Assembly: GCA_951406725.2 (NCBI GenBank)
Contig: OX597831.1
Span: 38,812,001-38,876,000, forward strand
Direction: 5' to 3'
Source of the DNA: Octopus vulgaris
Lineage: Eukaryota
DNA length: 64,000 bases
The stretch's first letter is position 1; each line of letters begins with the position of its first letter. The position numbers and the translations under genes are program-made. Under the pieces are notes generated by a model. That model saw only the letters and a list, made by a program, of their open reading frames with translations. It did no database searches and was not told where the DNA came from. Shown in pieces: positions 5,791 through 54,885 of the stretch.

Positions 5791-6338
5791 GTTACAACGA
5801 ATAAATAAATATATACATATATATATATATATCCACTTATATATATACTTACACATATATATATACATATATACATATATATACACATACAAACATATAT
5901 ACATACTATACATATATATATATATTATATATAATAATAAAATATTAGGGAGTAAATCCAAACTTACGTAAATCCAAATCTATGTATTGGCTTATGATTT
6001 TCACTGATTGATTTGCCTAATAGTGGTTTTATCTCTAATTTGATATAATATATATTATATATATATATATATATGTATATATATATATATATATATGTGT
6101 GTGTGTGTGTGTGTATATATATATATATATATATATATATATATTTATAATATATAAAAGGGCTTAGTAAAATAAATTACTTTGCCGCATACTGAACTCA
6201 TTAGAAATAGCAGCTAAAAAACTTATTTAAAAACCATTTCTAATACTTAAAGAAAATCTCTCTCATATAGTGCTTGCTCAACTCAACTCACGAAAGTTTG
6301 GGGGTACAGACATCAAAAAATCAAATGCAAAGGTTATT

Positions 6339-6390
6339 TGAGAACGTACGTTTCAAGATTAGTCAACACGACACTTCTATCATCAGCTCA
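6339..6390 (-). ncRNA. Type I hammerhead motif in the inverted unit of the array
   Basis: Reverse complement of the 7423-7474 motif. Confidence 0.72.
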
Positions 6391-7422
6391 GAAACTCCTT
6401 GGTTTGGATTTGAAAACACTGAAAGTGAGCATACTCTTTCGGCTTCTCATCGCTTTCGAAGATCTGCTCGTAACTAACAGTGCCAACAAACTCAAACATG
6501 CAAGTGAAGAATTTCTGTTCTCCCCTTTCCACCAGCGTGGGTTAAAATCAGCAAACACTCTGCTTATTTCGGTAAAATCCGAAGCACTAATTAGAGGGAG
6601 ATTAATTATAATTTCAACAATTGAGGGTAAAATTAATTAATTATTAATCAATTTCACCAAGTGTTCAGTATGAAAAGGGACCATTTAAGGCGAATTCAAA
6701 TGATTTTAACCCACGCTGGTGGAAAGGGGAGAACAGAAATTCTTCACTTGCATGTTTGAGTTTGTTGGCACTGTTAGTTACGAGCAGATCTTCGAAAGCG
6801 ATGAGAAGCCGAAAGAGTATGCTCTCACTTTCAGTGTTTTCAAATCCATCCAAGGAGTTTCTGAGCTGATGATAGAAGTGTCGTGTTGACTAATCTTGAA
6901 ACGTACGTTCTCAAATAACCTTTGCATTTGATTTTTTGATGTCTGTACCCCCAAACTTTCGTGAGTTGAGTTGAGCAAGCACTATATGAGAGAGATTTTC
7001 TTTAAGTATTAGAAATGGTTTTAAAAAAAGTTTTTTAGCTGCTATTTCTAATGAGTTCAGTATGCGGCAAAGTAATTTATTTTACTAAGCCCTTTTATAT
7101 ATTGTAATAATTTGAATTCGCCTTAAATGGTCCCTTTGCATACTGAACACTTGGTGAAATTGATTAATAATTAATTAATTTTACCCTCAATTGTTGAAAT
7201 TATAATTAATCTCCCTCTAATTAGTGCTTCGGATTTTACCGAAATAAGCAGAGTGTTTGCTGATTTTAACCCACGCTGGTGGAAAGGGGAGAACAGAAAT
7301 TCTTCACTTGCATGTTTGAGTTTGTTGGCACTGTTAGTTACGAGCAGATCTTCGAAAGCGATGAGAAGCCGAAAGAGTATGCTCTCACTTTCAGTGTTTT
7401 CAAATCCAAACCAAGGAGTTTC

Positions 7423-7474
7423 TGAGCTGATGATAGAAGTGTCGTGTTGACTAATCTTGAAACGTACGTTCTCA
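7423..7474 (+). ncRNA. Type I hammerhead ribozyme motif (representative copy of the array)
   Basis: TGAG-CTGATGA-[tAGAagtGTCgtgttGACtaaTCTt]-GAAA-CGTACG-T-T-CTCA: stem I TGAG/CTCA, intact core, palindromic stem III ACGTACGT, GUU triplet. Same motif starts at 6862, 7983, 8543, 9104 and 9665. Stem II is imperfect. Confidence 0.75.
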
Positions 7475-51152: not shown

Positions 51153-51170
51153 AGTTATCATTATTATTAT

Positions 51171-51950
51171 TACTAGCAGAAAAACCGCTCTTTCACATTT
51201 GATTCCCAATTCTAATAATTTTTATATTTTACGTTAAATTATTTCGTTGTGCAACAGAGCTCATTTACTTATTAAATATTACTTTCATTATTTTATCACA
51301 GTATTAATCACTCTTTTTTAAACAAACATCAAGGTAGTTCAACTATGTAAGGGGGCCGTTTATCAAGTTTCACTTTTCCCTCAAAGCAACATAGAAATTT
51401 CAGTTCAGCAGCCCATGTGTGAGCTTTGCAGTATGAACCAACGTTGTCAAAGAGACTCCTTGCAGTATGTGGCTGTACAATAGACTGGATAGCATGTTCT
51501 TGAAAATTATCGAAACTGGCTTTCATTGCTGATCATTTAACATAATTTTTCCTAGTTTGGAAATGCTTTCGTCTGTACTCCTGCTGTAAATATTCGGTTT
51601 TGTCTCTTAGCATCCTGTTTGTTGGTACTGGTGTTTCTGTTTCTATCTCACTTATGTTTCAAAGGCTTCCCATTTGATACTGATTATCAATTGACAGCTG
51701 AAGAGTCACAGACGGTGAAAGCTGGCTGAGTGACTTATTCTCCTCTCGAGATACTCTAACCAGCCGGTCATGTGTAGCGGAAATACAATCATCTCTACTT
51801 CTATGCGCATATTCAAACATTTGTTTCAATCGCTTAGCCCTGGCTTTATCTGATTCATTTGCCCGTCTTTCTCTCTGCCGTTGTGCCTTTGATGCTCAGT
51901 GTTTTTTTCTCAATTGCATATTTTTTTCAACACCCCATGTTGAATTGCAA
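51171..51950 (-). mobile_element. Helitron-derived fragment
   Basis: YCKAHTWAAELKFLCCFEGKVKL resembles the Helitron N-terminal CCxxGKVxL motif, with a tactag terminus at about 51171. Confidence 0.5.
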
Positions 51951-54532
51951 AATTCTAATGTGATATTTGTGTAATAGCGAAGCAAAACCGGAAGTGTGTG
52001 TTTATATTACTGAGACAGTGCATGCTTATATTAGATAGTGTGTGCGTGAGAGATATGGAGAGAGAACGTTGTAAACAATGAATGAAATAAATATGAAATG
52101 AAAAAGTCGTATAAATAAAAGCTAGTTAAAATCCATCTTTTACCGAATATTTAAATTTGTGAACTTCAAATATACAATGGTAAAAGGAAGTTCAGAAAGT
52201 AAATTTTCTTGAAAACCTCAATTTATAAACACTCTCACTTGCTTAGTAAATATTTCTTTCAGCAATTTATCATAGTTGTAACATATCTCTAATTTAGACA
52301 AACGTCAGGGTAACCCTACTGTGTTTATCATACTAGAAATAGCAGCGATCACATAGTTATTATTTTAAGGCTTATAGCGTTCCAAACAGTTATACCAACA
52401 AAATCACTTCTTAATTTTTTTAATATTACGCATATATGATGAACTGTGGGTTTTCAAACAGCGAATCAAAACTTGAAATGAAAACATTGAAATGAATATA
52501 TATTAAATTATCATTTAGAGCAATAGAGGTGAGAAAGAGTGACAGATTTTTACAAATGAAAACTGAAATATTTGTGTGCAACGAATTAATATTCTTTATT
52601 AAACATTAAAATCTAATTCGCAATGCATACAGCGAATATTTAAATTTGTGAGAAGTTGTAGTTCGGATATTCAATAAACAACAGAAATCGAAATTACAAG
52701 TAATTACAAGTAATTACAAGTAATTTCTTATAAAAAAATTTCCAGATGATCAAGCCTTTAATAATTGCTTTCTTTTAGTAACTGTAACTACCTAATTAAT
52801 AAGCTGCTTTCTCGATTATAGAGTATTAATTTTATTATTATCTTCATGATCATCATAATCATGATTATTATTATTATTATTATTATTATTATTATTATTA
52901 CCATCATCATCATCATTATTATGTTTATTATTATTATACCCATTATTATCACCATCATCATCATCATTATCATCATCATTATTATTATTATTGTTATTAT
53001 TATGGTTGTGGTAGTGTTGGTTGTTGTTCTCGTTGTTATTGACAGGACATCAGACTTTGATCTTGCCTCGTTTTCACATGATGCGTGTGTAGTTACATGA
53101 ACAATTAAATTGGAAATATATATTGGTTTACTAAAGAAATATTCTAAGATAAAATATGTGTGATATATTTTCAACATAAAAGCAAAAGCAGGTGTGAAGT
53201 TGTCTATAAGAGGAAAAACAGAAAATTAAAAAGCAATTTCAACCTTATAAGATCGCTAAAAATTCAAACATTATTTACTAGCATATAAGTATTGGATAGA
53301 AAAAAAATTTGGAAGTTAGAAATATTATATATTTGTATATTTACAGAGATGCCCGAATTGATGCTTTGTGGAGAAAGACGAGGATAATATTATACACACC
53401 AGAACATGGACGGGTGTATGTGGGTAAATGTAAATAAATATAGGTGTTTCTCTAGGTATAAAACCATCCTCTTAAAAACCGAACTATAAAGTCAACGGGA
53501 AACTTTCCTACATACACAGTCTTATCACTCAGTCCAATAGTGTTTAAAGACTTGATAGTTTGTATGGATACACATATCCATACAAATAAATTTATACATA
53601 CATGCACAAACACACATGTACACATATATGTTCATAGAGAAACAGATATATATATATATATATATATATATATATATATATATATATATATAAGGAGATA
53701 GCCATGCAATCAAATCCTACACATTTTGGCTAATCCGGAGATTTCCTCTCCGTAGTTGGCAGAGAGAAACAAATCTGTCAAACGAGCGATCTATATTACA
53801 CTTTTATGAAAACTCTGTCAGAGTTAGGTCAGTCATGTCTGATCGCAAAACAGCGCGGTTAAATTATAGAGTACAAAACCATGAGCAAACACACATATAC
53901 ACACAGATAGACACAAGCATGCTAGTCAGTGCACACACACACACATAATTTTATCTAAATTGGTTTGACTAATTTCCATAACACTGAGGGCGAAGAAAAC
54001 GTGATTCAATTAATTAATTAATTCAAGCGTAACACAGCTTTAGGACATAAGTACACACACATACACGCACTCTCTCACACACACACAAGCATACATATAT
54101 ATATATATTCGTGTGCATATATATATATATATGTATGCATATATACATGTATAATATTTATATGTGCCTGTGTGTGTGTCTATATATATACATATATGTA
54201 TACGTATATATATATGTATATATATATAGACACACACACACTTTTATATATATATATATATATATATATATATTATGTGAAATAGAAAGATGAATAATCT
54301 TGTAGTAGCCTTTCGAAACACGTGTAGAATGAAATAAAACGATTTCTGTTCAATCTGCGTTCAGCTCCATTTCTTCAATTCACCAATAATACTATATATA
54401 TATATATATATATATATATATATTGAGATATACCACTGTGAATTCAAAAATTTAAATTTATTAACATAATTTTATATTATAATGTATTCCTATAATAATA
54501 TAATATAATAAATAATAAATATTAAATACAAA

Positions 54533-54885
54533 TTAAGAGTGCGTGCTACAAACCCCAAGATTCCGAGTTCGATTCCACGCTGTGACCTGAATAATAATAA
54601 TAATAATAATAATAATAATAATAATAATAATATTAATAATAATAATAATAATAATAATAATAATAATAATGATGATGATGATGATGATGATGATGATGAT
54701 GATGATGATGATGATGATGATGATGATGATGATGATGATGAAAAACACCTTAGGAATGAGAACCCAGATTCCAAATTTCCCCAAAACACAAGATGAAGGC
54801 GGGAAATGTGTTAACAACAAACAAGATGAGAACAAATATCCGTCAAATGTAAATAATGTAAATAAAATTCCTCATCTCTTAAATA
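54533..54885 (+). mobile_element. Second copy of the tRNA-head / microsatellite / HHR element (HHR internally deleted)
   Basis: Colinear with 50750-51152, B box gagttcgattcc, (AAT)n(GAT)n spacer, and remnant acac-aagatga-aggcgg-gaaa-tgtgt. Confidence 0.7.

Follow-up and report, generated by a model that had tools for sequence, protein, structure and literature searches.

Hammerhead-bearing fold-backs, stubs and a tandem array at an Octopus vulgaris locus are probably products of Penelope-like elements

The stretch analyzed here, called the window throughout, comprises 64,000 nucleotides of Octopus vulgaris DNA (assembly GCA_951406725.2, contig OX597831.1, positions 38,812,001 to 38,876,000 of the forward strand), and all coordinates below count from its first letter. 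It contains a tandem array of a 561-base unit, a series of short fold-backs and single stubs that carry type I hammerhead ribozyme motifs, a decayed coding end of a Penelope-like element (PLE) with a hammerhead behind it, and a composite repeat whose tail also holds a hammerhead. A preliminary description, made from the letters without database searches and covering 6144..54885, had proposed a diversified set of non-autonomous hammerhead retroelements mobilized by microsatellite-targeting PLEs. The elements concerned are the following.

6145..6705, minus strand: an arm of the 561-base element in inverted orientation, roughly one unit in length, with an intact hammerhead (C3 at 6386) and an outer end that passes into (TA)n at a TA-rich motif of the unit.
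6701..10001, plus strand: head-to-tail array of a 406-base part unit, five units of 560–561 bases and a 92-base tail, then (TA)n.
17369..17760, unstranded: degenerate fold-back with arms of ~150 bases and a 44-base tail on the right; U3-A8 cores at 17616 (plus) and 17469 (minus), with GCAA/GCAT replacing GAAA.
17796..17990, minus strand: decayed minimal motif, core from near 17924 with U4>A, (AT)n 102 bases downstream; kin of the 25551 site.
19546..19770, unstranded: perfect loopless fold-back with 77-base arms and a 66–71-base tail on the right; motifs at 19633 (plus) and 19612 (minus), both with G12>A.
20180..20510, unstranded: fold-back with a 64-base tail; motifs at 20275 (minus, U16.1>A) and 20320 (plus, C3>A, internal duplication).
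25534..25645, plus strand: decayed minimal motif, core near 25554, flanked by two (TA)n tracts.
25694..26272, unstranded: fold-back with 240-base arms and a 66–70-base tail; motif at 25991 (plus) intact with stem III ACCTAGGT, motif at 25907 (minus) with two core changes.
26288..26450, minus strand: single stub with (TA)n on both sides; the motif (26407) reads GCAA and has stem III AGCGCT and a stem I of 2 bp.
31309..31528, plus strand: intact hammerhead, C3 at 31313, stem III ACGATCGT, with a 138-base tail to (TA)n.
34883..35136, unstranded: old fold-back, a relative of the 31313 family, with both arms cut within the ribozyme; ends in (TA)n.
43304..43566, plus strand: single stub embedded in (GATA)n/(GACA)n; its motif at 43326 is intact and has, at 5 bp, the longest stem III.
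43928..44085, minus strand: single stub ending in (TA)n; core intact at 44068, stem II strong, stem I nearly absent.
50746..51150, plus strand: composite repeat, whose head has a B-box-like motif of polymerase III type (50787); (AAT)n(AAG)n follows, and behind it a tail containing a minimal hammerhead at 51058 (U16.1>C).
54529..54874, plus strand: second copy of the composite repeat, with a B box at 54567, (AAT)n(GAT)n and an identical tail start; ribozyme broken by a deletion.
57513..58004, plus strand: decayed 3' end of a PLE frame, with a cysteine linker and the end of a GIY-YIG endonuclease of Neptune/Nematis type (tblastn E 1e-27).
58107..58263, plus strand: U3-A8 hammerhead, position 3 at 58111, with stem III AGCGCT and a short stem II; tail to (AT)n at 58264.

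The motif signal in the window lies above chance. Both strands were searched with a type I hammerhead descriptor with pairing rules, every CTGANGA having been listed beforehand; the input was 51,482 bases, with microsatellites masked and one array unit and one copy of a 2.74-kb duplication retained, and block-wise dinucleotide shuffles served as background. This generic descriptor gave 4 perfect matches against a shuffle mean of 0.07 (0/200 shuffles attain 4) and 12 against 2.75 when one core change was permitted (0/40), so the comparison with dinucleotide-shuffled sequence that the preliminary description had suggested comes out in its favor within the window. A second, stricter descriptor, drawn up after the sites had been seen, permits the U3-A8 core and requires a palindromic stem III. 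It gave 5 perfect matches against 0.01 (0/100 shuffles) and 9 against 0.47 with one change (0/60); with two changes the count is 17 against 9.1, and one of 15 shuffles attains it. The weakest single sites are thus indistinguishable from chance, and those at 29059, 40524, 47373, 54275, 11606 and 62794, which belong to this two-change class with no excess over shuffles, were discarded. An explanation by chance matching within AT-rich repeats draws on that class and on an Rfam search at E up to 10, where no hammerhead family appeared among the best 150 of 182 matches, these being microsatellite noise. Set against the perfect counts and the position of one motif by a PLE gene end, its overall probability is negligible: it is refuted for the intact and one-change sites and stands for weak single sites (17895, 25551, 54275). 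DNA pattern scans gave no match in viral contigs and none in prokaryote genomes.

Intact type I hammerheads occur in five families, namely the array, 25991, 31313, 43326 and 58111, the last with a U3-A8 core. In the array C3 lies at 6866, 7427, 7987, 8547, 9108 and 9669, all six motifs are intact, and stem III reads ACGTACGT. Damaged motifs are those at 19633/19612, 20275/20320, 51058, 17616/17469 and 26407; 44068 retains its core with stem I nearly gone, and this stub was likely cut off at its 5' side. The eight main sites of the preliminary description do hold motifs at the positions it gave, above chance, but an intact core with three stems is found only at 7423, 25987 and 43322. Elsewhere the core carries G12>A in both arms (19629), one change per arm (20220) or U16.1>C (51054); the site at 17613 has a U3-A8 core with GCAA replacing GAAA and a stem I of 2 bp, and that at 44014 has an intact core but a stem I of only 2 bp. 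Overlooked were the intact motifs 31313/34056 and 58111 and the decayed fold-back at 34883–35136.

Two kinds of core change recur. Two unrelated sites (17616/17469 and 26407) have GCA(A) where GAAA is expected, and the related sites 17924 and 25554 have CAGACGA where CUGANGA is expected (U4>A); these could be natural core variants or decay. A paper by Lunse et al., judged by its title, reportedly covers PLE hammerhead variants, and GCAA and U4>A could be among them. As had been claimed, the families share no sequence kinship; a pairwise comparison of 15 elements (105 pairs) singles out no more than two pairs, 31313/35.0k (z 16.7) and 17895/25551 (z 4.8). Stem III is self-complementary across the families, which had been taken for covariation; since they are not alignable, this is a shared design and not covariation of the alignment type. 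All nine stem III sequences tried give two-molecule duplexes (-7.4 to -16.9 kcal/mol), and one of the nine gives a hairpin.

Several neighbors of these motifs merit description. The second copy of the 31313 motif, at 34056, lies inside a 2.74-kb local tandem duplication (29131–34596, copies 93% alike) that also includes several repeats and an AT-rich stretch of 1.5 kb. That stretch, upstream of 31313, was considered as a PLE remnant and is unsupported as such as far as tested, its six minus-strand read-through frames having no Pfam match and the stretch no PLE profile match. A 119-base piece between two (TA)n tracts (54274–54392) has GAAA and a ACACGTGT palindrome with no 5' core, and is perhaps a stub cut within the ribozyme. 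In the degenerate fold-back at 17 kb, the loop (17523–17573) is 92% like a 51-base piece located 950 bases upstream (16571–16621), as if nearby DNA had been copied into the junction.

The surroundings and geometry of the elements provide a second line of evidence. Eleven sites, each from a different element, were measured for the distance between H17 and the nearest (TA)6+ or (GATA)4+ in the 3' direction, and random unmasked positions served as comparison. The median is 149 bases at the sites and 1306 at random positions, and such a microsatellite stands within 300 bases on the 3' side at 8/11 sites versus 18.8% of random positions; the Mann-Whitney p of 8e-5 is generous, because the 11 include sites that had been picked in the preliminary description with microsatellites in view. 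The microsatellite link proposed there holds at these eight sites but not at 51054, which stands after (AAT)n(AAG)n with the nearest such microsatellite 2553 bases off. The proposed layout of an inverted arm plus a longer arm recurs in all five well-kept fold-backs, which have head-to-head arms, unlike flanks and an extra tail on one arm. The tails measure 44, 66–71, 64, 66–70 and 92–103 bases, and the short arm tends to end at a TA-like motif of the element.

Long inverted arms in TA-rich surroundings could also suggest that the fold-backs are miniature inverted-repeat transposable elements (MITEs) of DNA transposons, in which the motifs are passengers or chance. The signature of such elements, terminal inverted repeats with a matching target duplication on both sides, had been named beforehand as evidence that would count against a retroelement origin, and it is absent from 5/5 fold-backs: the base pairs immediately flanking the arms differ from left to right, and in every case a single side carries the extra tail. 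Moreover, in one case the arm pair runs on into a tandem array, inverted arms are lacking at six further motifs, and the motif counts far exceed those of shuffles. The MITE explanation is largely refuted and must be considered very improbable. The fold-back pattern instead resembles PLE insertions, which are described with an inverted pseudo-long terminal repeat (pseudo-LTR), an optional 31-bp tail and palindromes at the junction (Arkhipova et al. 2013, PMC3846280), and with a tail of 30–40 bp and a microsatellite bias (Craig et al. 2021, PMC8557442). The likeness to the insertions of these two papers extends to head-to-head arms, a palindromic or short-loop junction, a tail on one side, microsatellite targets that hide any target duplication, and, in the coding remnant described below, a cysteine linker before GIY-YIG; a difference is that the elements here have almost no reading frame between the arms.

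The third line of evidence is the PLE coding remnant itself, first pointed to at 57600–57998 by a motif scan and by reading by eye. A phmmer search with this remnant against 1.84 billion representatives returned 74 proteins at E up to 0.001. Domains were scanned in 12 of these proteins; GIY-YIG is present in 11, and seven have both reverse transcriptase (RT) and GIY-YIG. When the proteins were searched back on the window, 69/74 matched 57498–58004 (tblastn, best E 1e-27), and elsewhere there was one match at E 0.043. The cysteine linker is a feature of Neptune and Nematis (PMC8557442), and the U3-A8 core of the nearby hammerhead is a described PLE hammerhead variant (PMC4209133). Because the GIY-YIG remnant is followed by the hammerhead, 110 bases 3' of the remnant's stop, and then by (AT)n, 129 bases past H17, the 58111 site is the end of a coding PLE. 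Two negative searches are weak: a Pfam search covering 292 of the 405 stop-free pieces with at least 44 residues gave no GIY-YIG or PLE match and missed the real remnant too, and a word-based protein search with the remnant, itself a weak search, found nothing among longer proteins. A metagenome locus (L001, from P0001, 40% identity) showed no clean motif by eye after its frame and was not used. Thus the "PLE coding remnants" of the preliminary description come down to one, which lies beyond the range it had covered.

The 561-base array is the best preserved system in the window. Six complete motif copies stand in a row, as expected of the tandem units of a non-LTR retrozyme; the units are ~99% alike, their GC content is 35%, and the loop of 150 bases between the arms belongs to the short arm. 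The unit has no Pfam, tblastn or PLE-profile match, and a word-based protein search with its antisense frame, again a weak search, gave nothing among longer proteins. The unit or part of it occurs in 20/24 listed runs, from nine studies and five organism labels. Four sequencing runs (three organism labels) were compared with unit 9441–10001 at 80% likeness; the comparison covers contigs only, depth is not copy number, run X1 may be the source sample, and run X4, presumed to be RNA, was not counted as expression. The unit is matched by 4200, 195, 1595 and 554 contigs, and all 30 bins are covered in each run. The head-to-tail joint (10001-to-9441) is present in 4/4 runs, opposite-strand joints at other places in 2/4, and the shares of contigs that continue into unlike sequence are 0, 0.03, 0 and 0; of the 244 loose contig ends, the 24 listed resemble unit variants. 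Because the unit is multi-copy and its head-to-tail joint recurs in all four runs, non-autonomy is supported for the array, and for the array only. The inverted arm and the tandem units have in common eight of nine letters that depart from >80% of X1 depth, and so both sides of the array stem from one template lineage. Among the listed unit variants, those close to the motif affect N7, the opening position of stem II, and loop 2.

Non-LTR retrozymes were defined by Cervera and de la Pena (2020, PMC7229834), with a mollusc among the hosts, and were tied to PLE ends by Li et al. (bioRxiv 10.64898/2026.07.22.740005). By its sequence the array fits the definition in that preprint, and it is likely a non-LTR retrozyme moved by a PLE. 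Like metazoan members of the class, it is a tandem of non-coding units that each hold an intact type I motif and are low in GC; the unit falls within the 51–972 bp range of Li et al. and exceeds the 170–400 of PMC7229834. It differs in its PLE-type inverted arm and its tail in (TA)n. Alternatively, the array may have expanded in place from one stub by unequal crossing-over, a route discussed in the preprint, and not through copying of a multimeric or circular RNA. Near-identical units with common minority letters would agree with such an expansion, but the identical 561-base head-to-tail joint recurs in 4/4 runs under three organism labels, and the array begins with an inverted arm and finishes with a tail at (TA)n, like a single insertion. 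Local expansion is accordingly regarded as doubtful.

Overall, the short elements are probably the 3' ends (pseudo-LTR, minimal hammerhead and tail) of many PLE families, one of which keeps the end of its endonuclease gene; alongside them stands one 561-base tandem unit, likely a non-LTR retrozyme. A PLE origin with microsatellite targeting, as first proposed, is upheld by the insertion geometry, the 3' microsatellite bias and the PLE endonuclease end with its own hammerhead by (AT)n. The further claim of the preliminary description, that most or all short elements are dedicated non-autonomous families and not clipped ends of coding PLEs, appears unlikely. No coding sequence lies upstream of any motif save 58111, and the array shows that one such family is present. 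On the other hand, the long arms end 10–100 bases upstream of the motif, as under heavy 5' truncation, the 35.0k arms and 44068 are cut within the ribozyme, 58111 is the end of a coding element, and solo motifs are interpreted as truncated PLEs in PMC4209133. The term "non-autonomous" holds for the array and fails at 58111; the short fold-backs match the form expected of 5'-truncated coding PLEs, from which neither they nor the other stubs can be distinguished on window data. The original proposal is partly supported, being right in kind and proven for the array alone.

In addition to the generous p values noted above, several observations weigh against an origin from PLE ends or against working ribozymes. 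First, the window holds a single PLE coding remnant, a count with which a profile of 26 longer proteins agrees (distant PLE clades could escape this profile), and 58111 is alone among the families in being traced to a coding PLE. Second, a core position or stem I is broken in five of the eight main sites proposed at the outset, and 0/11 single motifs adopt the full three-way junction as their lowest-energy form. Third, the tails here are 44–103 bases long versus the 30–40 published for PLE insertions. Fourth, the array contigs are short and cannot reveal what adjoins a unit copy, the first stem II pair of the array ribozyme is a U-U mismatch, and conservation of this ribozyme is only suggestive, with 0/40 listed variants (of 61) in the 33 core or paired positions (p 0.08).

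A plausible mechanism begins with a Neptune/Nematis-type RT-GIY-YIG protein that would nick (TA)n or (GATA)n; microsatellite nicking has been hypothesized for Neptune (PMC8557442). Reverse transcription would be primed at the tail of the RNA, and copying would mostly halt soon past the ribozyme to leave a stub. At the other DNA end the same template may then be copied in inverted orientation up to a TA-like motif, short of the tail, to generate a fold-back. Plain twin priming on one unit-length RNA is ruled out for the fold-backs, whose arms span the same sequence, and plain snap-back is ruled out for the array, where the loop belongs to the short arm; plain snap-back does fit the 19.6k element, which has no loop and shares G12>A between its arms. 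For the array, a multimeric or circular form of a single 561-base unit is the likely template, and second priming on that same template would suit it best. Since stem III pairs between molecules in all nine cases and none of the single motifs folds fully, the palindromic stem III is predicted to pair between two ribozymes, such that only tandem transcripts would be cut, yielding unit-length RNA, and single stubs and opposite-strand pairs would be mostly dead. Activity is low even for hammerhead dimers in PMC4209133, and cutting was found in 1/9 elements in bioRxiv 10.64898/2026.07.22.740005; for these reasons self-cleavage of the window's hammerheads, that of the array included, is far from sure.

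The composite repeat represents a different arrangement. Its B-box-like motif is present in both copies, the A box is worn, and ARAGORN detects no tRNA. A third head at ~60960 (B-box-like motif at 60988) has no tail, so that a tail follows two of the three heads in the window. Pattern scans for the repeat in two other collections were empty. tRNA-derived short interspersed nuclear elements (SINEs) with a hammerhead are known from Schistosoma (Sm-alpha/Sj-alpha; PMC2770079, PMC6765202), and the composite repeat resembles them in placing a hammerhead behind a head of tRNA-derived or polymerase III kind. It differs in having a minimal PLE-type motif behind a trinucleotide tract, and in that the window shows only two copies, both damaged. 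One tentative and rather speculative interpretation is that 50746–51150 and 54529–54874 are a tRNA-headed polymerase III SINE that captured a PLE hammerhead end and would be moved by PLE proteins, not by those of a long interspersed nuclear element (LINE), as one among a dozen-plus PLE-dependent microsatellite families; fold-backs with a dead core in both arms (19.6k) would then imply that the ribozyme is dispensable for the insertion step. The literature searched on this point, as far as its accessible text extends, contains no SINE moved by a PLE. Two copies are insufficient to prove a composite element.

Other repeats occupy much of the remaining sequence. A nearly whole LINE lies on the minus strand at 35855–39900, with a 366-aa frame with weak CCCH fingers, a 768-aa frame for APE endonuclease and RT, and a 259-aa end; a fragment also occurs at 18989–19430, and a Myb/SANT-like frame of 80 aa (39904–40143) is located just upstream. 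Flanking this LINE near (TA)n, 35185–35406 and 40694–40893 show inverted similarity (151/237 columns) and are possibly the two parts of an old fold-back that the LINE has interrupted. The remnants at 49573–49887 (minus), 61238–61805 (minus), 50328–50561 (minus) and 62850–63622 (plus) presumably derive from elements of mariner, hAT/Spin and RTE type, which they resemble by eye; Pfam gave only a weak Spin-doc finger match for them. One short repeat family is very abundant, lacks any hammerhead match and is frequently arranged in partial tandems; its copies lie at 558–1425, 22350–22720, 45480–45820, 55050–55190 and other places. This family and the repeat at 25172–25480 resemble octopus SINEs in their look.

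Minimal type I hammerheads in the pseudo-LTRs of metazoan PLEs, with many families per genome, were described by Cervera and de la Pena (2014, PMC4209133), who read opposite-strand pairs 100–700 bp apart as truncated PLEs. The motifs of the window resemble theirs in the short stem I, palindromic stem III, extra base by stem II and U3-A8 variant, and equally in the unrelated families within one genome, the solo motifs and the opposite-strand pairs at the same spacing. They differ in that stem III palindromes are often 6–9 bases and several stem II loops are long (to ~55 bases); GCAA for GAAA and U4>A, each at two window sites, are absent from the accessible text of that paper. A literature search on hammerheads in the presumed host group listed only a Naiad paper and a twister paper, and the main text of one curated repeat study of Octopus vulgaris does not contain the word 'ribozyme'. 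The individual features are known from the literature: PLE ends with hammerheads, pairs on opposite strands, tails, a bias toward microsatellites and retrozymes have each been published. The overall architecture likewise corresponds to PLE insertions and non-LTR retrozymes as already described, and the window adds families to these two known kinds.

For annotation, the practical correction is that a short fold-back which sits in (TA)n and has a tail on one side only should be taken as a likely PLE end, not as a MITE. Also notable is the density of the hammerhead families, about ten within 64 kb. The young array, whose units all keep an intact motif and which has a clear tail and an inverted arm derived from the template of the units, offers a good substrate for the questions that PMC8557442 and PMC4209133 leave open, namely the role of the hammerhead in PLE movement and how tandem and inverted insertions are constructed.

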